A stretch of DNA of 64,000 nt, taken from Escherichia coli (GTDB lineage: Bacteria; Pseudomonadota; Gammaproteobacteria; Enterobacterales; Enterobacteriaceae). Positions 49,501-60,025 of the stretch are shown piece after piece. Within the stretch, counting starts at the first letter, position 1. Each line of letters starts with the position of its first letter. Position numbers and translations under genes: made by a program. The notes under the pieces are model-generated. The model was not told the origin of the DNA, searched no databases, and worked only from the letters and a program-made list of their open reading frames with translations. The stretch lies in the NCBI RefSeq assembly GCF_024700885.2, contig NZ_CP117016.1. One strand, given 5' to 3'.

Positions 49501-49929
49501 CTGCCAGAACTGTTCTGTCAGGCCCGGGGTCAACAACTCAACCTCAGAGGCGGTACCTGTTATCAACAGAATGCGTATCTTACGTCCCCAGAATCTGCCA
49601 TACTGGCGCCGCAGAGTATGACGAATATCCTGAACAGTAACATAGCGCGGTGGCGTCTGAGCCAATCGCTCTTCATCGTCAGGTAACCTTTGCTCCTTAC
49701 GGGCCCTGCGTCGATATGTCAGTTCCTGAACATATTTTTTCATCACAGGCAGGTAACAGACAAAGAGCACCCCCAGACTCAGCAATATCAGCAGTAGTAT
49801 TTGATCCCGGCGTGTTTCTGCCCCCAGATATGCTCCATATCGGGTTATCAGCCACCAGAGCGCAGCCACACCAATAAATACAATCCCCGGTCGCCCAAAG
49901 CGACCAGACAGACAGGCCAGTTTATTCAT
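46540..49929 (-). CDS. tssM: T6SS membrane-complex subunit TssM (IcmF-like)
   Basis: 1129 aa; N-terminal TM helices; IcmF-like size and context. Confidence 0.85.
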   Translation of the reverse strand: MNKLACLSGRFGRPGIVFIGVAALWWLITRYGAYLGAETRRDQILLLILLSLGVLFVCYLPVMKKYVQELTYRRRARKEQRLPDDEERLAQTPPRYVTVQDIRHTLRRQYGRFWGRKIRILLITGTASEVELLTPGLTEQFWQEEQGTLLLWGGDPSQPENADWLAALRRLRYRPADGIVWVTSGLSETLSAPLTEDALDRVSRAVSSCCERLGWRLPLYVWSLQESPDERGRITQPVGCLLPAECSSDKLKAQLQAMLPGLVAQGIQQICCAPRYYFLLSLAERFRRNIDAVVEPLSVLLRPYRQLLLAGIVFSPATVGGERSVRHRWRMDNRWEALPETVQQLPVRLQPSRTGHNWRRSLAVMAAILMMAQGTGMVVSFLANRSLVAEVQEQIRPAQNQQLSPAERLQALLNLQKSLARLQYREEHGAPWYLRAGMNQNADLLAVVMPLYAQNAHLLLRDAAAAHLEQQLRTFIRLPPDSPQRGKMAKPAYDQLRLYLMLAQPQHMEPAWFSRTLMREWPQRDGVSAVFWQANGPTLLAYYASGIITHPQWKLTADEELVSQSRTLLLRHLGTQNSDAMLYQKMLARVAHQFADMRLTDMTGDTDVSRLFFTDEVVPGMFTRQAWEEAVLPSIDTVINERREEMDWVLTDGRQKAPSPVSPEALRQRLTTRYFADFGNAWLNFLNSLHLRKAQTLSDVTEQLTLMADVRQSPLVALMNTLAVQGCTGQPREAVTDSLVKSARNLLSQEKQPVAVPESRLHGPLATTFGPVLALMDNQNNSADMLNLQTYLTRVTQVRLRLQQIAGSSDPQAMMQLLAQTVLQGKSVDLTDTRDYGSLTAAGLGQEWYGFGQTVFVRPMEQAWQQVLTPAAESLNARWRTAVVDGWNNAFSGRYPFKNVSSDASLPLLAKYLNTDTGRIARFLQNNLSGVLHREGSRWVPDTINTRGLTFNPAFLKAINTLSEIADVAFTTGNAGLHFELRPGTAAGVMQTTLITDNQKLIYVNQMPVWKRFTWPADTEAPGASLSWVSTQAGTRQYADLPGSWGLIRLLEMARRKAAPGVASGWSLSWQAQDGRMLNYTLRTEAGEGPLVLLKLRNFVLPETVFELSGTSAFTGNDEDAGDTVEETD

Positions 49930-51070
49930 TCTGGTTTCCTGATGTAACAGTACTGATAAAATGTTCTTCTCCGGATGAGAATAAAGTCAGGAGAGAATCA
50001 TTACCAAGACAGACCAGATCGGCTGCCAGAGCAGTAAGCAGCCACGGAGCAGCAGGTCCCGGGATACCGCACCATTTTTCCAGTAACATACGTCCGGACG
50101 GTTCCCATCCGGCACCATACTGGTTTCCAATAGTCATCAGCGGTGCAGCAATCTTTTCCCAGTGATAACAGTCTCCCAGTACACGAGCGGTACGACAGGC
50201 TGCTGTCTGGGTTTCAAGGAAAAGTGTGAATTCATCATTAAACTTGTTGATATCCAGCGACATCGGGCGTAGCAGACGGGCTGAATGCGACAGATTATAT
50301 TTTTGCGCAACATCATCGCTGGTCAACAAAAGTGCAGCCAGTCCGTCAGAGTATGTATTTCCCCCATTAAGCTGTATTACCAGTATCAAATCCACAGTCA
50401 GCACTGGTTGTTTCAGACGCTCATCAACCCACCCCATGGAAAAGTCAGGAGTAACCTCGATATTGTCAGGAACGACGCGTTGGGGAAATAACGCTTCCCA
50501 TGCAGAAACAAAAGCAGATCTGATTTCAGAATCAGGCTGATCGGTTATCAGCGTCACATTTACAGGGAGAGCGGCAGGTAACTGACAAAATTTATCCGTT
50601 ATCTCCCTAAGCAAGACACGTAAAGAGGCTTCAACCTTATGCCCACTGTCAGAAAGATAATCTATTTTCTTTACAAGGCCGTACTGCAGAGGCAATTCAT
50701 CACAAAGAGTAGCTACCGTTATTTTATCAGGCAAATAAACACAACTGGCAGTAATAACAAGATACCTTTCGGCCCAGGATTCCCACTGTTTCTGAGCATA
50801 CTCCCCCTCTTTTTTAAGAAACAAATGTTCATCCATCTGGTTGCTCCACTGCCAGTGTCGCAGGCAAAACAGGAAAAACCAGCACCCCGGAGGAGTCAAT
50901 GCAAGCCACCAGATACTGAAATTATTTAATGCTTTCACATATTCTGATGCCCGGATAATAAACAACAGAGCACCAACAACAGCCATAAATGCCCCTGTCA
51001 TAAACCACAACATCATTGATGGTTTATGAGGTAATTCTGTTGATAATGATTTTGTTCTGCTCCATCCCAT
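49922..51070 (-). CDS. Hypothetical membrane protein (382 aa), T6SS-linked
   Basis: Two N-terminal TM helices followed by a soluble domain; translationally coupled between PAAR and tssM. Confidence 0.45.
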   Translation of the reverse strand: MGWSRTKSLSTELPHKPSMMLWFMTGAFMAVVGALLFIIRASEYVKALNNFSIWWLALTPPGCWFFLFCLRHWQWSNQMDEHLFLKKEGEYAQKQWESWAERYLVITASCVYLPDKITVATLCDELPLQYGLVKKIDYLSDSGHKVEASLRVLLREITDKFCQLPAALPVNVTLITDQPDSEIRSAFVSAWEALFPQRVVPDNIEVTPDFSMGWVDERLKQPVLTVDLILVIQLNGGNTYSDGLAALLLTSDDVAQKYNLSHSARLLRPMSLDINKFNDEFTLFLETQTAACRTARVLGDCYHWEKIAAPLMTIGNQYGAGWEPSGRMLLEKWCGIPGPAAPWLLTALAADLVCLGNDSLLTLFSSGEEHFISTVTSGNQNE

Positions 51071-51073
51071 GTT

Positions 51074-51340
51074 TTATCCTATTGCACATTCCGGTGCACT
51101 GGATATAACCTTACACCCACACAGACATTTACATCCATCAATCACAACAGCTCTTCCATCAGATATCCATTCAGGAGAGCCCTCCACAATAGGATTGGTA
51201 CCATGTCCGGAAACAGGGCAACTAACCATATCTCCAACAAGAGCTACTTTTTTACCATCGACAATCATGGTTGAAGATGCAGAAATAACTTTACCACCAT
51301 GTGTGGTATTATCACCAAGCAATACAAAACCTTTAGACAT
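51074..51340 (-). CDS. PAAR-like spike-tip protein
   Basis: 88 aa; GDMVSCPVSGHG...IDGCKCLCGCKV pattern of PAAR-like Cys/His proteins. Confidence 0.7.
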   Translation of the reverse strand: MSKGFVLLGDNTTHGGKVISASSTMIVDGKKVALVGDMVSCPVSGHGTNPIVEGSPEWISDGRAVVIDGCKCLCGCKVISSAPECAIG

Positions 51341-51371
51341 AATACTCTCAAAAATAAATTTTCACTTTGAG

Positions 51372-52049
51372 TCACCAGTTGCCGTAGGGATAAATTTTCC
51401 CTTTGATAAAATCTGGTGTATCACCGTAATAAACATATCCATCTGGATGTTTAGTAACCCCCTTACACATCTTCATTTTATCACCCGATACTGTAGTAAT
51501 TTTAGCATCCAACTGAGGTACCACCGGATTACCGCGATCTCCCAGCCAGACTCTTACCTTCCCTTCAGGAGCCAGACCAATAATCATCGTTGAACGATAA
51601 TAGGTTTCGTTCCAGCGGTTGTCTGCGTAAGGCGTAACCATCTGCTCCCAGGTCCCTTTTTTAAAAAAAATCAGAGTTTCATAACTCTTTTTATCAATTA
51701 TTGAATCCCAGCAAAAACGCAACATCAGGGGTAATGCTTTCCCCTTGTTATAATACGACTCAGTCGCGCCCAGATGGTCATTCCAGCGCCCTACACTGAC
51801 CTGACTCGGCTCGGTATTATCAAGATACTGATAAGTCGTCTTATAACCTTCCCCGTCCACCATCAACGCCTGGGTGGCCAGCGCAGGCAGAGCCTTTGGA
51901 TAAATAAAGAGAAATTTCCATTCATCATAGGGTAATTTTTTATAACCCCATTCAGTCTTATCCAAATCAGCATACCGTGAGCTAACCGAATTACACCCAG
52001 TTAACAATGCCAATAATGGTGCGATAAAAATGATTTTATCTCTGGTCAT
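51372..52049 (-). CDS. tli1: Lipoprotein, candidate Tli1-type immunity protein for the adjacent phospholipase
   Basis: 225 aa; signal peptide with lipobox (LLTGC); immediately downstream of the DUF2235 effector gene. Confidence 0.55.
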   Translation of the reverse strand: MTRDKIIFIAPLLALLTGCNSVSSRYADLDKTEWGYKKLPYDEWKFLFIYPKALPALATQALMVDGEGYKTTYQYLDNTEPSQVSVGRWNDHLGATESYYNKGKALPLMLRFCWDSIIDKKSYETLIFFKKGTWEQMVTPYADNRWNETYYRSTMIIGLAPEGKVRVWLGDRGNPVVPQLDAKITTVSGDKMKMCKGVTKHPDGYVYYGDTPDFIKGKIYPYGNW

Positions 52050-52068
52050 GTATTGTCATCCTGTAGCG

Positions 52069-53751
52069 TTAAACACCAGACATCATAACTTTAGTATTTT
52101 TTACTGCGTTATCATTCAATCGCTGCTGATCATCCATGTACCATACAGAACGAATCCAGCGATCATTTGGTTTATTCGGAAAAACGAACGCCTTATTACC
52201 TTTAGGACCAAAGCGATGGATAAAAATCTCTCCCGTTGTAGGATCCACCCATAAATTACCATCAGACTCAATATTCCAGTTAGCGGAACAATGGGTGTAT
52301 TTTCCGATAATATACAACTCTTCCTCAGTAAAAGCCTGAGGCTCTTGCCCCAAACGTACCGCTTTTCCCTGAGCAATGGCTTTGTCAGCAAGAAATATTA
52401 GTTCAGATGGAAGTTGTAACTCAGTATTTGTTTGTCGAATTGGTTCAAACAATACCCCTGCTTCCTGAGCAGCATCCAGCATCACACGCAGGCAAACATT
52501 AGCCCAGTCATTAGGTACTGCCATACGCTCAAAAAATACTGCGGCTCCCACCTGCTTTTGTATCACACCAGCCCGACGTTGATTGCTGTTGTTCACACCT
52601 ATGGAACGAATTTTGGTGGTTAGTTTTCCATGAGGCAAAATATGTTTTAAGGCTGGCAGAGTCATCAACATTTTTCTGACTTGCTCTGCTTTACGGTATA
52701 CTCGCGTATCCATTTCTCTGGTATCGTCACTGACAATTTCAAATTCCGGGCAACTCAGAAACAGACTTTCATTTTCCTGCAGAGGTGAACCTACCGGATT
52801 GTAACCACCTCCAATATCTGAATGCGCCCCCGGTAAAGCCAGTTCGGGCCACATACCTTTAATACTGTTCAGGCTGAAATTATATCGGTATTCATTCATT
52901 GCAGTAATCTGGAAAACTTTCTTCGCGACTGAAGGACGCAACTCCAGCTTTACTCCCGGGTTGCTACGTCCATTAATATCGAAGAAATTACTGATTCCAC
53001 CAATAGCTGCGACAGTATCAAAAAGCCCCAGAAAACGTACTTCACCAGAAGGTTTACCATCATAAAAATCGCCTCTGAGCCCTTTAGCAATAGCTCTGGC
53101 TATAGCAGGATCCTGTTCCATAACCCGATTGGCAAAGTGCCTTGCCGCCGCTGCTCCCCGGCTAAAACCAAAAACATCAAACTGGATTTTTGCGATACAA
53201 AAATCAGGACTTAAATTGAACCCCATAAATTCTGATAACGCCTGGGTGATTCGTTCCATTGCCTCGTCGGTTTTCGTCACCACACCTTCAAATATATCCA
53301 GAATACTGGTGCCTAATCCCATGCCTATGACTGAATCTGCTTCACCAGCCGCAGTCCCTATCCCGGAAATGTAAGTCTTAATTTGAGCTGACGTCTGGTC
53401 TTTTTTAAGTACCTGATCTGGATGATAGAGTATATTAAGCCAGTGAATATTGGAATAATATCCACGATAACTGCCATTCGAGATACTGTTCTTGTTAATT
53501 TCTTTAAGAAAGTCCTCACAGCTTTGTGCATCTTTTTGATTTACCCCCTGTCTGGCTGCACTACACTCATTAAATTTCATCAGGCGAGATGCTGTATTCT
53601 CCCGATTGTTTCCGGTACCATCGAAAAATATGCCAATAGTTAAAGTCACACCCCGCGCCGGTTTTTTCTTTGCAACAACAACTTTCCAGTCATTATGAAT
53701 ACTGGTTTTATGGGTGGCATCTGTTACGTCATATCCCTGATATTTTGTCAT
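52069..53751 (-). CDS. tle1: Tle1-family T6SS phospholipase effector (DUF2235)
   Basis: 560 aa; DUF2235 signature IGIFFDGTGNN and lipase GxSxG motif (GFSRG); start overlaps the vgrG stop. Confidence 0.75.
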   Translation of the reverse strand: MTKYQGYDVTDATHKTSIHNDWKVVVAKKKPARGVTLTIGIFFDGTGNNRENTASRLMKFNECSAARQGVNQKDAQSCEDFLKEINKNSISNGSYRGYYSNIHWLNILYHPDQVLKKDQTSAQIKTYISGIGTAAGEADSVIGMGLGTSILDIFEGVVTKTDEAMERITQALSEFMGFNLSPDFCIAKIQFDVFGFSRGAAAARHFANRVMEQDPAIARAIAKGLRGDFYDGKPSGEVRFLGLFDTVAAIGGISNFFDINGRSNPGVKLELRPSVAKKVFQITAMNEYRYNFSLNSIKGMWPELALPGAHSDIGGGYNPVGSPLQENESLFLSCPEFEIVSDDTREMDTRVYRKAEQVRKMLMTLPALKHILPHGKLTTKIRSIGVNNSNQRRAGVIQKQVGAAVFFERMAVPNDWANVCLRVMLDAAQEAGVLFEPIRQTNTELQLPSELIFLADKAIAQGKAVRLGQEPQAFTEEELYIIGKYTHCSANWNIESDGNLWVDPTTGEIFIHRFGPKGNKAFVFPNKPNDRWIRSVWYMDDQQRLNDNAVKNTKVMMSGV

Positions 53752-56273
53752 TCTGTTTCTCCATGAATTTTTACCTTCCCAAACTCAACTTTTACTACTG
53801 ACGGAATGGAGGTGTTGACTGGCGCTGTTTTACCATTTTCATCGGTGATCCCCTGTAGAATATCACCTTCAGCCGTTGTTAATCGATAAGGCGTCGAAGG
53901 TTGCGGCACTCCCGCTTCATCGGTAAGAATAAAACCGCCCCCAAACCCTCGCGGCATTTCAACAGACGCAATATCAAGACTTGTTGGTCCCATCTTCTGC
54001 ATATTCGTGCTTTTTAACAGAATCTGTCCCGGGCATCCCAGCTCAATATTTCCACCGCTTAGTTTGATATAAGCTCCACCACATGCCAGTATCAGTTCCT
54101 GATTAGCAGAAACAGTCACTTTGCCCTCAGAACTTTGAATATCAAGATTCTGTTGGGAACTCATTGACAAATCGTCACTTTGAGCCTGAATATTTACCCG
54201 CCCTTTTGCTGCTAACAGTTGCATCCCCTGGTTTCTGCTCAACAGGCTAACAGCACCTTCTGCTACAACTGTAAATGACTGCCCGGCAGTAATATCAGTG
54301 TTATCTCCCGACATTATGCCCACGCTTTCACTACCTGAAGCAATTCGTAACGCCCGCGCACTAACCATGCCAATCCCATCAGGAGCATGCAACAGCATTC
54401 CCGGCGCAGTGAGATCTGTTAGTGATGCATTCAACCGTTGCTGACAACTTATATCTCCCTGAGTAGCATTTGCAGCAGTTGCGGCCTTCGCCATACTTCG
54501 GGCCAGAGATAATGCCTGCTCCAATTGGCGGATAGCTTCATCCATATCCAGCATCTTTCCTTGTGCCTGAGGCTGCATATCTGCACTGATAAATATTCCT
54601 TTTCCTCCCCGGATACTTATCCAGTCATCAGTCCTCAGCTCAGCGCCTTCTCCCCTGAGTTCCCGGGAGGCATCAACGTTATGGCCAAGATTAAGTTGTG
54701 TCTTACCGCCATACTCGGTACTGAGCTTGATATGCTCCTCACCGCGTTTGTCCTCCATCCGCAACTTGTTATTTGCCGGCGTACGGATAACATTGCGCGT
54801 ACCGTTCTTATCGGTAACGTGATCAACATGACGTGAATCATGCAGGGCATGCGCTATATAGGGACGATCCGGATCACCTTCCTCAAAAGCAATGGCCACT
54901 TCCGTTCCCTGAATCAGCGGAAAATGAAAACCATAAGCATCACCACTGTAGGGTTTGGCCAGACGTACCGGCATACTTTCCTGTCCCGGATTTTTATCAT
55001 CACGGTCAGCATCAAATTTCACCCGGTACATGCCTGAAGCATCCTGCCAGGCGTAGATATCCCCTTCTTTTGCACTGGTCACACGGGCCGTCATGGTCCC
55101 GGTGATTTTCGGACGAGTAAGTAACGGTGGTCGCCAGCAGACAATCTCGCTGTAAGGAACAGCACTCAGCATCACCTGTAGCGCAGATTTCCGGCTACCG
55201 GTGAACAGAAGCTGCGTGAGCAGAACCGGCTCCTGTAACGGTGCAGGCAACACTGGTGGAGTACTGTCAGTAATAGTCAGCACCTGTGCCGGTAACAGAC
55301 TGGCATCGGTGCTTTTACCTGTGATACGTGTTTGCTCAGCCAGAAAACGCTCGTGATCGAGCCGGGCCCAGAAGTTAGCCGTCTCCGGCGCAGGGTCAAT
55401 TTTATCGCCCCTTTCTGTATGGCGTGGCCGGTAATGATAAACCTCGCCATAACTGGTGTCGTAACCTTCTCCACGGGTCATGTCCGCCGGTACGGACATC
55501 AGTATGTTCTGGGCCTCGCGGTGGTTATAGTCGTTCGTGATAACACGGCTTTCCACCACCCGGTGCTCCACATTCAATGCCCATACTGAGTCTGTGCCAC
55601 TGTCACTCATACCGGACGGGCTGTTAACGGGCAGTGTTTTATCAAATATCAACGCCGCCTGGACGTCACCGAAGTGGATCACCTCTGTCTGCGCATCCGG
55701 GTGCAACGTAAAGAAGTAAAAAATGCCCACTTCTGCCAGCAGGCGCTGGATAAATCTCAGATCGCTTTCCTGATACTGGTTAATCTGTTCGCGCTTCGGA
55801 TATGTCCTTTTGAGGCTGAACTCATACTCCCAGCCTTTCAGCCCGTGTTCCGTCAGGATTTGCTCCACCACCTCAGGCACTGATTTATTAACGAAAAAAC
55901 GGTGTGTACGGAACTGTTTATCCAGCAGGGAAATGAAAGGTTTAAGTGTGATCCGGTATTGTGCCTGGTCCTCAGAGCCAGAAATACGTCTGAAATCAGT
56001 AATAACACCGTGCACTTTTTTCTGTTCAGTCAGGCTTTCCAGTAATCCGGTTCCCATTATCAGGGTTGCGGATTTACGCAGGAACCAGGCAGCATCAGGA
56101 TACCTGTCCGTACTGGTAAAAATGATGTCATACCGGTAAATCTTACTTATGCCTTCAGTTCCGCTGAAATCTTCAACATCCAGCGATGACGGGCAGGAAG
56201 GTATATCCAGTCTGTAGCGGTTCAGGGTTCCCACCCCGGATAAAACATTTTGCAGGGAGTCAGTGAGATTCAT
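53748..56273 (-). CDS. vgrG: T6SS spike protein VgrG with C-terminal extension
   Basis: 841 aa; conserved YQESDLRFIQRLLAEVGIFYFF and an extended C-terminus of the kind used for effector docking. Confidence 0.9.
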   Translation of the reverse strand: MNLTDSLQNVLSGVGTLNRYRLDIPSCPSSLDVEDFSGTEGISKIYRYDIIFTSTDRYPDAAWFLRKSATLIMGTGLLESLTEQKKVHGVITDFRRISGSEDQAQYRITLKPFISLLDKQFRTHRFFVNKSVPEVVEQILTEHGLKGWEYEFSLKRTYPKREQINQYQESDLRFIQRLLAEVGIFYFFTLHPDAQTEVIHFGDVQAALIFDKTLPVNSPSGMSDSGTDSVWALNVEHRVVESRVITNDYNHREAQNILMSVPADMTRGEGYDTSYGEVYHYRPRHTERGDKIDPAPETANFWARLDHERFLAEQTRITGKSTDASLLPAQVLTITDSTPPVLPAPLQEPVLLTQLLFTGSRKSALQVMLSAVPYSEIVCWRPPLLTRPKITGTMTARVTSAKEGDIYAWQDASGMYRVKFDADRDDKNPGQESMPVRLAKPYSGDAYGFHFPLIQGTEVAIAFEEGDPDRPYIAHALHDSRHVDHVTDKNGTRNVIRTPANNKLRMEDKRGEEHIKLSTEYGGKTQLNLGHNVDASRELRGEGAELRTDDWISIRGGKGIFISADMQPQAQGKMLDMDEAIRQLEQALSLARSMAKAATAANATQGDISCQQRLNASLTDLTAPGMLLHAPDGIGMVSARALRIASGSESVGIMSGDNTDITAGQSFTVVAEGAVSLLSRNQGMQLLAAKGRVNIQAQSDDLSMSSQQNLDIQSSEGKVTVSANQELILACGGAYIKLSGGNIELGCPGQILLKSTNMQKMGPTSLDIASVEMPRGFGGGFILTDEAGVPQPSTPYRLTTAEGDILQGITDENGKTAPVNTSIPSVVKVEFGKVKIHGETE

Positions 56274-56802
56274 GATTTATCACTCCACGAACAGCTCTGA
56301 AAGGGTATTTGCAGGGACCATGACGTTCGCTCTGGTCAGTCTGAACATTACTGCTTTTCAGCTCACCGTATGGCCTCACGACCTCCATGTCATTAAGCGG
56401 GATATCGAAAATACACCCGTCGGCAATCTCTATGCCGGCAACCATGATGCGCGGTGTGTCCTTATCGCACTCAGAGTGCAGAACAGACCTGACAATGAAC
56501 TGGCCTTTATCAGGAAAAAGACAGAATGAAGGCGGAATGCACAGCTGGCCGTTCACGATACGAAGCGAGGGTTCAGATGTAATTTGCCGCTCCCTGAATC
56601 GGGTTCCCCGTGGAGCGATGGAAACGCTGACTGGCTGGTAGTCCTCTGGCTCCGGGACACTGAAACACACATTGTCGCCTCTTGTGCTGACCGTTACTGT
56701 TTCATCAAACCGATAATAATCCCCGCGTCCGGGGCATCCTGTCAGTAACGTCAGACAGAGCAGTAAAGCAGAACGATAACGAAAGGCTCTTATTTTTACC
56801 AT
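56260..56802 (-). CDS. Lipoprotein of unknown function (180 aa)
   Basis: Signal peptide with lipobox (LTLLTGC); several Cys; between the HExxH protein gene and vgrG. Confidence 0.45.
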   Translation of the reverse strand: MVKIRAFRYRSALLLCLTLLTGCPGRGDYYRFDETVTVSTRGDNVCFSVPEPEDYQPVSVSIAPRGTRFRERQITSEPSLRIVNGQLCIPPSFCLFPDKGQFIVRSVLHSECDKDTPRIMVAGIEIADGCIFDIPLNDMEVVRPYGELKSSNVQTDQSERHGPCKYPFRAVRGVINHESH

Positions 56803-57371
56803 GGGAACCCCCGCAACGTGCTGGTATACAGGCTGCGAATAACATACTCAGACATATTTCCGTCCAGTGTGATATCACCGTCCCTTCTCATATCACACCA
56901 TGTCCCGTATCCTTCAGCCTGCAAAGTAAAATGATCAGCAATAATTTGTGCCTGCTGCTCCATGGGATATTCGCTTAACAGACGCCCGTCCAGAACATAA
57001 CGGTAATTCACCGCCCAACTGAACATCCCCCGACCGATGACATTCATTCCCTTTTCACGCTGCCAGACATGCGCCATTTCATGAATAAACATATGCTGAT
57101 AAAAGGGAACGCTGAGTGAATAATCATCCCGATAGTGCTCACGGAAATAAATCTTACCATCGGGGGGCATGGCAGTTTGCTTATTCTGAAGACCAAAAGG
57201 CAGAAAACTGTCATGGTGGATCCAGACCTTTTCATAAGGGATTGTCAACCTGAATACCAGCCTCGCCAGCGCAATCTCTCCCGGCGTCAGTAACCGCAAT
57301 GAGCCTTCTTCCCTTTGATTTTTACCTGCGCCAGCGTCCTGATTTCTGCCATAGCCTGTCATAACGCGCAT
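56796..57371 (-). CDS. HExxH-motif protein (putative zinc metallopeptidase-like), 191 aa
   Basis: HEMAHVWQ motif; located between clpV and the lipoprotein gene. Confidence 0.45.
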   Translation of the reverse strand: MRVMTGYGRNQDAGAGKNQREEGSLRLLTPGEIALARLVFRLTIPYEKVWIHHDSFLPFGLQNKQTAMPPDGKIYFREHYRDDYSLSVPFYQHMFIHEMAHVWQREKGMNVIGRGMFSWAVNYRYVLDGRLLSEYPMEQQAQIIADHFTLQAEGYGTWCDMRRDGDITLDGNMSEYVIRSLYTSTLRGFPW

Positions 57372-60025
57372 TCCTGCCGCAGCTCAATCACCATACCGTC
57401 TTCGTCACTCCATGCCAGAGCCAGCGCCTGCGGTTTCTGCTTCGCGGCCATATGGCTCAGCAACTGCCGGCTCAGTACCGGCAGCAGTTGCTGGTTCAGC
57501 AGACTCTCCACATTCCGGGCGCCCGTATCCGGCAGCAGGCAGGCGGATGTCAGGGCATCGTACACACGTTCATCAACCGATGTGCTCAGCCCATAATGGC
57601 AGTGCAGGCGTTCGCAGACCTGTGCAAGCTTCATCTCCACAATGGTGCGCATAGCAGACGGTGTCAGCGGACGGTAAATCACGGTCTGGAAACGGGCAAG
57701 CAGTGCTGGCTGGAAGTGGTCGCGCAGCAGTGGACGGATAAGCTCATGCAGCTCCGATTCCGTTGTCTCCGGCTTTTCGCTCAGTTGCTGCATCAGAAGG
57801 TCACTGCCCAGATTGGAGGTCATCAGAATGACCGTATTACGGAAGTCAATTTCACGCCCCTCACCGTCGCGCATAAAGCCCCGGTCAAACACCTGGTAGA
57901 ACAGATTCAGCACATCCCGGTGGGCCTTTTCCACTTCATCCAGCAGCACCACGCTGTAAGGGCGCTTACGTACAGCTTCCGTCAGAATACCCCCCTGACC
58001 GTATCCCACGTACCCGGGCGGTGAACCCTTAAGCTGGGAAACCGTATGGGGCTCCTGATATTCCGACAGATTGATGGTAATCAGTGATTTTTCGCCGCCG
58101 TACATCACATCTGCCAGCGCCAGTGCCGTTTCGGTTTTTCCCACACCACTGGGGCCGACCAGCAGGAACACCTCCTGGGGGCCGTTACCAGATGTCAGAC
58201 CCGTTTTCGCCGCACGCAGACGCTGTGCAATGGATTCCAGTGCCACGTCCTGTCCGACCACCCGTCTGCCGATATCCTTTTCCAGATGCAGCAGTTCCGT
58301 CTGTTCATCCTTCATCAGTGAGGATAACGGCACTCCGGTCCAGTCCGCGACCACACCGGCAACGGTGCGTACGTCAACATCCACACTGAGCAGGGGCTGA
58401 TTCTGCTGAATGTCGTGCAGTGCCTGCTGCAGGTGATGTGTCTCACTCTGGCGGGAAATATCGCTGCGGCTTTCAAGTAACTCACCGGTGAGTTCGCACT
58501 CACGGGCGTACTGCTGCTCCAGGTCATCACGTGCTGTCATCAGCACGTTCTCTTCCTGCTCAATGGCAGACAGGCGTTCGCCGTGATTCTGATGACCAAC
58601 GGCAATATCTTCCAGCAGTGCCTGTTTTTCCATACCGAGGGAAGCGAGCTGTGAACGGATTCGGGTCAGCTGTTCCGGCACCGTGTCGAGGCTCATCCGC
58701 ACACGGGCAGCAGCAGTATCAAGCAGGTCAACGGCCTTGTCCGGTAACTGACGTTCTGTCAGATAACGGCGCGAGAGTGTGACGGCAGCACGTACTGCCT
58801 CATCGGTGATATGCACGTTATGATGTTCCGCATAACGGGATTTCAGGGAGCGCAGCATCAGACAGGCCGTCTCATCATCCGGCTCGTCCACTTTGACCAT
58901 CTGAAAACGCCGCTCCAGAGCCGCGTCACGTTCCAGGTATTGTTTGTACTCAGACCAGGTGGTGGCAGCAATGGTGCGCAGTTCGCCTCGCGCCAGCGCA
59001 GGCTTCAGCAGGTTGGCCGCATCCGCGCCACCGGCCTGATTACCGGCACCGATAAGGGTATGGGCTTCATCTATAAACAGCAGTACAGGAGCCGGTGACA
59101 GCTGCACGGCATCAATCACGTTTTTCAGACGCTGTTCAAATTCACCTTTCACGCCGGCACCGGCCTGCAGCAGGCCGAGGTCAAGGGTGCGCAGGGTGAC
59201 GGGTCTGAGAGATTCTGGTACGTTACCTTCCACAATACGCAGGGCGAGCCCTTCCACCAGAGCCGTTTTCCCCACACCGGGGTCCCCCACCAGAATCGGG
59301 TTATTCTTGCGACGGCGGGAGAGAATATCCACCATCTGACGGATTTCCGTATCGCGTCCCGATACCGGGTCAATTTTCCCCTCTCTCGCGCTGGCCGTGA
59401 TGTCCCGGGTGAATTTATCCAGCGCACCCTGTAACACCGGCGGCAGGTCACCTGACGGTATACCTGCCGTATCCGCACCGACAGGGCGCCCGATAAAGGT
59501 CACACTGTCTCCCTGAGGCAGCACAGGCTCTGCATCCTGTAACGTCTCCGGACACTCATCAGACTGCGCATCCAGCAGCGGGGACAGACGCTGCAACTGG
59601 CTCTGACTCAGTGTCAGCAGAGGCCACAGCCCGTCACAGCGAACCAGGTGCGGATTTTCCGTCAGGGCACCCAGCAGATGCACGCTGCGGATATGTTCTT
59701 CTCCCTGTAATGAGGCCACCATCCAGGCCTGTTTCAGCAGAGCATTCAGGGACTGCGCAAGCTGCGGGCGACTGCGTACGCTACGGGGCTGGTTATCCAG
59801 CCAGCCGAGCAGCGACTGCCATATCGCGTCCATATCCCAGTCATAACGCCTGCCCAGCACGGTAAGGTCTCCTTCCCCCTGCTCCAGCAGTTTCAGTAAC
59901 CAGTGCTCCGGGGTGATTTCCGCATGGGCCCGGGTCTGGCAAAGGGAGGCTGCGCCTTCCAGTGCACGGGCACAGTAATGATTAAGACGACGTAACAGGG
60001 CTGCCGAATTTTCCATGTTATTCAC
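57359..60025 (-). CDS. clpV: T6SS AAA+ ATPase ClpV (TssH)
   Basis: 888 aa; Walker A motifs GDPGVGKTA and GPSGVGKTE; Clp-N-like N-terminus. Confidence 0.9.

Follow-up and report, generated by a model that had tools for sequence, protein, structure and literature searches.

The window analysed here, a 64,000-nt stretch of an Escherichia coli genome (contig NZ_CP117016.1, assembly GCF_024700885.2), carries the Sci-1 T6SS of enteroaggregative E. coli (EAEC), a locus 99.9% identical to that of strains 042 and 55989. Two minus-strand genes, which the earlier note had reported as a pair of reading frames at 56260-57371, are indeed present between clpV (tssH; 57359..60025, minus strand) and the spike gene vgrG (53748..56273, minus strand). 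The first (56796..57362, minus strand) encodes a stand-alone gluzincin metallopeptidase of the VgrG2b-C-ter-like (Tpe) type, our candidate effector, and the second (56260..56802, minus strand) encodes a 180-aa lipoprotein, our candidate immunity protein. As described before, both overlap their neighbours as well as each other: the clpV stop codon overlaps the effector start in an ATGA of 4 nt, the effector and lipoprotein genes share 7 nt, and the 3' end of the lipoprotein gene overlaps the vgrG start by 14 nt. The four genes from clpV to vgrG are therefore probably co-transcribed and translationally coupled. A further overlap of 4 nt joins vgrG to tle1 (52069..53751, minus strand), which together with the single-copy tli1 (51372..52049, minus strand) forms the characterised effector/immunity pair of the Sci-1 cluster. 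By position, the two genes correspond to the old locus tags EC042_4531/4532, which surface in the searchable literature only once, where EC042_4531 marks the place of a reporter insertion.

The length of the effector turns on which start codon is taken. The ATG at 57362, which lies in the overlap with the clpV stop, has AGGA about 9 nt upstream and yields 188 aa, is the one chosen in RefSeq and in most homologues (176-189 aa). The ATG at 57371, which directly abuts AGGA, would yield the 191 aa originally given and extend the overlap with clpV to 13 nt. We use the 188-aa numbering throughout.

The N-terminus of the effector holds no signal peptide, and its first ~20 residues are hydrophilic and modelled with low confidence. 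The single HEMAHVWQ motif was confirmed; it comprises H94-E95-M-A-H98 (codons 57069..57083, minus strand). When all PDB chains were searched with phmmer, the sole match to the effector was 6H56, the effector domain of VgrG2b (residues 25-156 against 98-235, E 7.9e-20, 74 bits). In this alignment HEMAH pairs with the HEMTH of VgrG2b and PMEQQ with NIEQQ, and H94, E95, H98 and E135 correspond to H935, E936, H939 and E983, the last of these being the third zinc ligand of VgrG2b (Wood et al., PMC6899460). E135 (codon 56958..56960, minus strand) is on this alignment, and on its conservation, the predicted third zinc ligand of the EAEC protein. The predicted fold is thermolysin-like and matches 6H56 as well. 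We then aligned by phmmer the best 150 of the 1,090 representatives that make up the family in a library of 1.84-billion proteins, and found H94 kept in 140/143, E95 in 138/143, H98 in 140/144 and E135 in 127/128 relatives. With these residues kept in 96-99% of distant relatives, a chance occurrence of HExxH was rejected. This conservation runs counter to one of the two outcomes by which the earlier note would have been refuted, a lack of conserved HExxH residues among homologues.

No Pfam or NCBIfam model matched the effector. PF13699 (eCIS_core, formerly DUF4157) has a similar HExxHxxQ-type motif, and DUF4157 is the classification of many orthologues according to Wood et al. (PMC6899460); against the EAEC effector, this model returned nothing even at E <= 10. 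A per-member Pfam scan of 69 family members gave marginal eCIS_core matches in 23 at E <= 0.1 and a match in one at E <= 0.001; the other matches, to DUF6782, were marginal too. We rejected DUF4157 as a label for the effector, and the Enterobacterales subfamily to which it belongs is effectively uncovered by any Pfam or NCBIfam model. Public databases list the protein as 'hypothetical protein' or, wrongly, as 'type IV secretion protein Rhs'. It can with confidence be named a VgrG2b-C-ter/Tpe-type metallopeptidase effector, a family described in 2019 (Wood et al., PMC6899460).

The lipoprotein that follows has, as first reported, 180 aa, with a signal peptide and the lipobox L20-T-G-C23 (codons 56734..56745, minus strand), read from the sequence and from its invariance in homologues. 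L20, G22, C23 and P24 are invariant across 24 lipoprotein homologues, as are the two cysteines C46 and C88. The protein scores 82.9 bits (E 1.8e-23) against NCBIfam NF045617, which has a cutoff of 43 and is named by NCBI 'putative T6SS immunity periplasmic lipoprotein', and it also matches Pfam DUF7480 (PF24295; E 1.1e-10). The one part of the earlier note that fails is its statement that neither protein could be matched to a family it was able to name. Sorting to the outer membrane is expected, because C23 is followed by P-G, without Asp at +2, and the orthologue SARI_02726 of Salmonella enterica subsp. arizonae fractionates with the outer membrane (PMC6899460). Wood et al. likewise describe immunity lipoproteins in which the lipobox is followed by Gly and cysteines are conserved in part (PMC6899460). 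A beta-sandwich is predicted (AF2 pLDDT 70.8), with a low-confidence C-terminal tail (residues ~145-180). The sequence found no match in the PDB, and the fold search yielded nothing beyond generic Ig/FNIII-like beta-sandwiches (E > 0.006), so that no specific fold is assigned. Lipoproteins with a similar 'V-V/T-V...CF' motif are also encoded by the ORFs after two VgrG-metallopeptidase fusions; by hhalign, the likeness of the EAEC lipoprotein to those downstream of VgrG-fused toxins was not significant (probability 6%, E 0.006).

The pair is rare and its presence variable. About 89 E. coli genomes have a clpV of this type, but the pair was found in only 34, and in 0.6% of complete E. coli genomes; in STEC719 the slot between clpV and vgrG holds a different, unrelated gene. 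Elsewhere the two genes travel as an orphan module, adjoining a prophage integrase away from any T6SS genes. Because the same T6SS backbone may either hold or lack the pair, the pair is cargo and no structural component of the machinery. These observations bear directly on the second option offered by the earlier note, an accessory pair, in which the metallopeptidase would, for example, be a TagX/MltE-type peptidase remodelling the producer's own envelope with the lipoprotein as its partner. Such a role would suit two genes lying in overlapping reading frames among core genes, whose position and adjacency are kept in the T6SS clusters of Yersinia and Salmonella arizonae, and to which no EAEC killing phenotype has been assigned. 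The effector, however, has neither a signal peptide nor a membrane anchor with which to enter its own periplasm. Moreover, the domain sits at the C-terminus of seven proteins of at least 700 aa among the best 150 representatives, and the loci of two of these, when read, proved to encode VgrGs; the distal C-terminus of a spike is the position of delivered cargo. Deletion and competition experiments on the orthologue also fit an effector/immunity pair (PMC12992299). We consider an accessory or structural role highly improbable and, given the variable presence and the orphan occurrence, rejected it.

What stands of that proposal is the effector/immunity pair: homology to VgrG2b, membership of NF045617 and the S. 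arizonae orthologues all point to a T6SS effector/immunity module of the VgrG2b-C-ter/PA0261 ('Tpe/Tpi') kind, a reading to which we give a probability of roughly 85%. The 188-aa zinc metallopeptidase, which has no signal peptide, would be made in the cytoplasm and delivered by the Sci-1 T6SS, as cargo, to the periplasm of adjacent Gram-negative cells. H94, H98 and E135 would hold the zinc of its gluzincin site and E95 would act as the catalytic base. By analogy with VgrG2b, it may cleave an envelope target, probably a protein tied to septal cell-wall remodelling, and this cleavage would lead to midcell blebbing and lysis. The 180-aa lipoprotein would be exported by Sec, lipidated at C23 and probably held in the outer membrane on its periplasmic side, where a C46-C88 disulfide would probably stabilise it and where it would bind and block toxin arriving from sister cells.

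Much of this outline draws on experiments with homologues. The C-terminal domain of VgrG2b is toxic in the periplasm only, its toxicity is abolished by E936A, H935A and H939A, it showed no peptidoglycan hydrolase activity, and PA0261 protects against it (PMC6899460). SARI_02727 is toxic once directed to the periplasm, and SARI_02726 restores growth in part and is protective in competition assays; a study of 2026 thereby established the two as an effector and its immunity protein with the periplasm as site of action (Front Microbiol, PMC12992299), and their complex is modelled by AF3 with an ipTM of 0.87 (PMC12992299). By analogy, the EAEC effector may be expected to be toxic in the periplasm by virtue of its HExxH motif, and the lipoprotein to sit in the outer membrane and neutralise it. 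The activity of the EAEC copy, its substrate and its carrier, VgrG or Hcp, we infer.

The same homology could suggest that the effector mainly targets eukaryotic host cells and that the lipoprotein has some other role. VgrG2b was first described in this way, as promoting bacterial uptake via the microtubule network, and is described as a trans-kingdom effector (PMC4453011); the EAEC locus is moreover part of a pathogenicity island, in an enteric pathogen, and adjoins the aai/Sci-2 cluster. A tightly coupled, fast-evolving periplasmic lipoprotein is nevertheless the signature of an antibacterial toxin that acts in the periplasm. Identity to S. arizonae is 43% for the lipoprotein against 63% for the effector (the latter taken from the arizonae protein of the same 90%-identity cluster, as representative of SARI_02727), and identity to Yersinia wautersii is 58% against 79%; the lipoprotein thus evolves faster than the effector. 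The nearest tested orthologue is, in addition, antibacterial (PMC12992299), and the family is common in environmental Enterobacterales such as Erwinia, Pantoea, Serratia and Buttiauxella. A mainly host-directed function is in our view very unlikely, whereas an additional host-directed role of the antibacterial effector could exist.

If the pair is an effector/immunity module, its part in Sci-1 killing has to be set beside that of Tle1, to which the killing of E. coli K-12 by Sci-1 has been credited (review statement in PMC6730261; PMC10715212). Because the field credits Tle1 with this killing, the EAEC metallopeptidase may be weak, condition-dependent or prey-specific. The published credit to Tle1, together with the rarity of the pair in E. 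coli, would also agree with an inactive remnant, that is, an effector that is undelivered or inactive in EAEC and retained merely by its embedding in the operon. Both reading frames, however, are intact, the catalytic residues and the lipobox are all preserved, the 34 E. coli copies are 97-100% identical along their full length, with no truncations among the matches listed, and the immunity gene has been kept alongside the effector. An inactive remnant therefore appears quite unlikely to us.

A functional effector/immunity module in turn raises the matter of delivery. Tle1 is known to be carried by the VgrG of the cluster, which would also be a candidate carrier of the metallopeptidase. The interaction between Tle1 and VgrG has been summarised, with the TTR site of VgrG described as occupied by Tle1 (PMC10715212), and no adaptor gene for the metallopeptidase is evident. 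We tentatively propose, at somewhat less than even odds, that Sci-1, usually seen as a Tle1-only system, carries a second, overlooked active antibacterial effector that is loaded away from the Tle1-occupied TTR site, for instance inside the Hcp lumen, the protein being of 22 kDa, or on a different surface of VgrG by way of its disordered N-terminal tail.

Sci-1 of EAEC ranks among the principal model T6SSs, and experiments on it have been read as though Tle1 were the sole toxin; its PAAR has been called 'uncoupled from toxin loading'. Killing, loading and immunity experiments should be interpreted with a second effector/immunity pair of the core operon in mind, and the current database annotations of the effector can be replaced. 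We know of no protease substrate for any member of the VgrG2b/Tpe family. If Sci-1 does carry a second active effector, it could reveal the substrate and the loading mode of this family, because structural and genetic tools for Sci-1 are detailed. Any tractable member would be useful, since midcell blebbing resembles the action of beta-lactams.

The EAEC pair is best seen as another member of the already described VgrG2b/SARI_02727-26 family and not as a new kind of system, and its known relatives differ in how the toxin is packaged and how the immunity protein is anchored. In P. aeruginosa VgrG2b the domain is covalently fused to VgrG through a TTR-like linker, as a specialised effector, whereas in EAEC the effector is cargo in its own right, made from a gene upstream of vgrG; unlike the EAEC lipoprotein, PA0261 is, by description, a soluble periplasmic protein (PMC6899460). 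Tpe1 of Acinetobacter baylyi (Tpe1/Tpi1, ACIAD0053/ACIAD0054) is described as a stand-alone cargo metallopeptidase of the VgrG2b family that acts in the periplasm and has its immunity gene downstream, but Tpi1 is described as an inner-membrane protein with a transmembrane helix and is no lipoprotein (PMC6899460). Tpe1 and VgrG2b are also unequal in their capacity to intoxicate E. coli (Wood et al., PMC6899460). The closest counterpart is SARI_02727/26 in SPI-20 of S. arizonae, which is known from experiments where the E. coli pair is known from sequence. The EAEC lipoprotein is 26 residues longer than its S. arizonae counterpart and has a low-confidence C-terminal tail with an extra cysteine, and the cargo downstream of vgrG differs, being Tle1/Tli1 in EAEC and a 741-aa protein with an FGE-sulfatase-domain protein in S. 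arizonae. In both species, however, the effector is a stand-alone protein of 188-189 aa with HExxH and Glu at equivalent positions, the DUF7480/NF045617 lipoprotein lies directly downstream, with an overlap and the same C-P-G lipobox context, and the synteny is identical, running tssK-tssL-OmpA-hcp-clpV-effector-immunity-vgrG...PAAR.

Both genes of the proposed pair lie, as the earlier note had read from the sequence, between clpV/tssH (57359..60025) and vgrG (53748..56273); all four are on the minus strand. In its longest form (56796..57371) the putative effector is 191 aa long and contains one HExxH motif (HEMAHVWQ), and the neighbouring gene (56260..56802) encodes a 180-aa lipoprotein with a signal peptide and a lipobox, L20-T-G-C23. 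The overlaps with their neighbours are also real, reading frames sharing 4-14 nt: 7 nt between the effector stop and the lipoprotein start, 14 nt between the lipoprotein 3' end and the vgrG start, and 4 nt between the vgrG stop and the start of tle1, which is followed by a single tli1 and a PAAR gene. We consider the ATG at 57362 (188 aa, the numbering used here) a more likely effector start than the upstream ATG, because its ATGA overlaps the clpV stop with AGGA ~9 nt upstream, and because it is used by RefSeq and suits homologue lengths of 176-189 aa. The cluster is the E. coli Sci-1 type VI secretion system (T6SS), and this region shares 99.9% identity with enteroaggregative (EAEC) strains 042 and 55989; two further genomes match it at 100%.

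To what family does the effector belong? It matched no Pfam or NCBIfam model, and a phmmer search of all PDB chains returned only the effector domain of P. aeruginosa VgrG2b (6H56, E 7.9e-20), with HEMAH aligned to HEMTH and PMEQQ to NIEQQ. According to the depositors of 6H56, the catalytic triad is H935/E936/H939 and a third zinc ligand is provided by E983, making the domain a thermolysin-like gluzincin (PMC6899460); the aligned effector residues are H94, E95, H98 and E135. When 1.84 billion representative proteins were searched exhaustively, 1,090 relatives came up at E <= 0.001. The HExxH residues are clearly conserved, against the refuting condition set out in the earlier note: when the best 150 of these relatives are aligned, H94 is present in 140/143, E95 in 138/143, H98 in 140/144 and E135 in 127/128. 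The extended motifs read F-[IM]-H-E-M-x-H-V-W-Q and [YF]-x-[MIL]-E-Q-Q. A confident AlphaFold2 model from 69 diverse sequences (pLDDT 88.9, pTM 0.85; poorly defined only in the first ~20 residues) likewise has 6H56 as its sole significant Foldseek match in the PDB (probability 1.00, TM 0.62-0.65), in agreement with the metallopeptidase fold that the motif had suggested. Wood et al. state that many orthologues are filed under DUF4157 (PMC6899460); we rejected this family (now eCIS_core) for the effector, which fails that Pfam model. In databases the ~180-aa homologues are mostly called 'type IV secretion protein Rhs', a legacy name that is wrong twice over, the proteins being neither type IV nor Rhs, and the 042 copy, in a subfamily that no Pfam or NCBIfam model detects, is a 'hypothetical protein' in RefSeq.

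The lipoprotein scores 82.9 bits against NCBIfam NF045617 ('putative T6SS immunity periplasmic lipoprotein'; curated cutoff 43) and also matches Pfam DUF7480. Across 24 homologues, with identity down to 41%, the lipobox residues L20, G22, C23 and P24 are invariant, as are C46 and C88. This pattern fits the immunity family described by Wood et al., in which cysteines are partly conserved, a disulfide is suspected, and the members from Enterobacteriaceae are lipoproteins that carry Gly two residues past the Cys (PMC6899460). The AF2 model of the lipoprotein, of moderate confidence (pLDDT 70.8), is rich in beta structure and resembles only generic Ig/FNIII-like sandwiches, a predicted fold better suited to binding than to catalysis. 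A profile comparison with the immunity proteins of VgrG-fused versions was not statistically significant. No signal peptide was found in the effector sequence and the lipoprotein has one, the standard layout for toxins acting in the target-cell periplasm.

Alternatively, the pair might be structural T6SS components. Its distribution speaks against this: 34 of 5,426 complete E. coli genomes carry it, whereas the clpV type of the window occurs in ~89, and strain STEC719, on the same backbone, has an unrelated gene in the slot between clpV and vgrG and another lipase behind vgrG. Across E. coli genomes the pair is variable cargo. The order clpV-effector-DUF7480-vgrG recurs in Yersinia wautersii and S. 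enterica subsp. arizonae, and in an Erwiniaceae bacterium (JAODIL010000069.1, locus L004 6001..6962) an orphan pair directly follows the integrase of a P2-like prophage, with T6SS genes absent from the 12.5-kb stretch read, which suggests that the module travels with mobile elements or occupies an integration hotspot. Identity to Y. wautersii is 79% for the effector and 58% for the lipoprotein, and to S. arizonae 63% and 43%; the lipoprotein evolves faster, a pattern typical of immunity proteins. The catalytic domain is also found C-terminally in true VgrG spikes, with a small lipoprotein ORF behind each one, and among the best 150 of the 1,090 relatives it follows other N-terminal extensions as well, the modularity expected of delivered toxins. 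Base composition falls along the operon (clpV 58% GC, effector 48%, lipoprotein 50%, vgrG 50%, tle1/tli1 43%; window mean 46%), and these steps over 51074..60025 would fit a cargo region of mosaic origin.

The neighbouring cargo varies too. The window has one tli1 (51372..52049, between tle1 and the PAAR gene) whereas 042 (locus L001 6452..7950) and BEC1-S17 (L009 11952..13450) each have two in tandem, the latter despite 100% identity to the window across the pair region; this looks like copy-number variation of the Tle1 immunity gene. In STEC719 (NZ_CP041411.1, L005 8091..8995), whose Sci-1 backbone is near-identical, the slot holds a 213/226-aa hypothetical protein and then an unannotated, very hydrophobic 83-aa ORF, perhaps a different effector with its own immunity protein, and a 'lipase family protein' replaces Tle1; the slot and the post-vgrG position both behave as cargo swap sites. 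Y. wautersii (L002 9627..12567) and S. arizonae (L008 10891..13976) have, where EAEC has Tle1/Tli1, a 741-787-aa protein that matches no Pfam family, followed by an FGE-sulfatase-domain protein, perhaps a further uncharacterised cargo pair. A 382-aa hypothetical protein without annotated function (49922..51070, minus strand), hydrophobic in its N-terminal part, is encoded between the PAAR gene and tssM, whose reading frame it overlaps, and is conserved in 042, BEC1-S17 and STEC719 even with differing adjacent cargo.

Taken together, the pair probably (at about 85%) consists of a zinc-metallopeptidase effector that the T6SS delivers and that acts in the periplasm, and an outer-membrane lipoprotein that confers immunity to it. 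The earlier note's effector/immunity proposal is supported by the 6H56 homology, the NF045617 match, the variable cargo distribution and experiments on homologues. The VgrG2b C-terminal domain is acutely toxic in the periplasm and harmless in the cytoplasm, loses toxicity in E936A, H935A and H939A, and is countered by PA0261; intoxicated cells form midcell blebs and then lyse (PMC6899460). Peptidoglycan hydrolase and generic protease activity were not detected, and pull-downs were enriched for MltC, PBP5, PBP6a and lipoproteins (PMC6899460). By analogy, the EAEC effector copy would be active. Gene position suggests VgrG as its carrier and size (22 kDa) suggests Hcp; the TTR site of VgrG is described as taken up by Tle1 (PMC10715212). 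EAEC papers and a review credit Sci-1 antibacterial activity to Tle1 (PMC10715212, PMC6730261), and in the laboratory this effector may therefore act weakly or only on certain prey. Within the literature that could be searched, the EAEC genes are mentioned only as a landmark for a reporter insertion. The practical interest lies in an effector that databases mis-annotate or leave unannotated, in a premier model T6SS where experiments usually assume one toxin.

The closest tested counterparts are SARI_02727 and SARI_02726 of S. arizonae, syntenic orthologues of the window pair (effector 63%, lipoprotein 43% identical, the effector value having been obtained with an arizonae protein that shares a 90%-identity cluster with SARI_02727). 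Fused to a PelB signal, stand-alone SARI_02727 poisons E. coli, SARI_02726 partially rescues growth, and the double deletion loses to the parent, but not to the effector mutant, in competition (PMC12992299). The S. arizonae locus differs in an extra 69-aa ORF without a Pfam match between the immunity lipoprotein and vgrG (L008 8046..8255), whereas the window lipoprotein overlaps vgrG directly. The effector family was described in 2019, with the cargo form and its lipoprotein partner stated for many Enterobacteriaceae (PMC6899460), and the orthologue was validated in 2026 (PMC12992299); the window pair therefore adds a member, not a kind, and as a previously uncharacterised member of a known effector/immunity family it is no surprise to a specialist.
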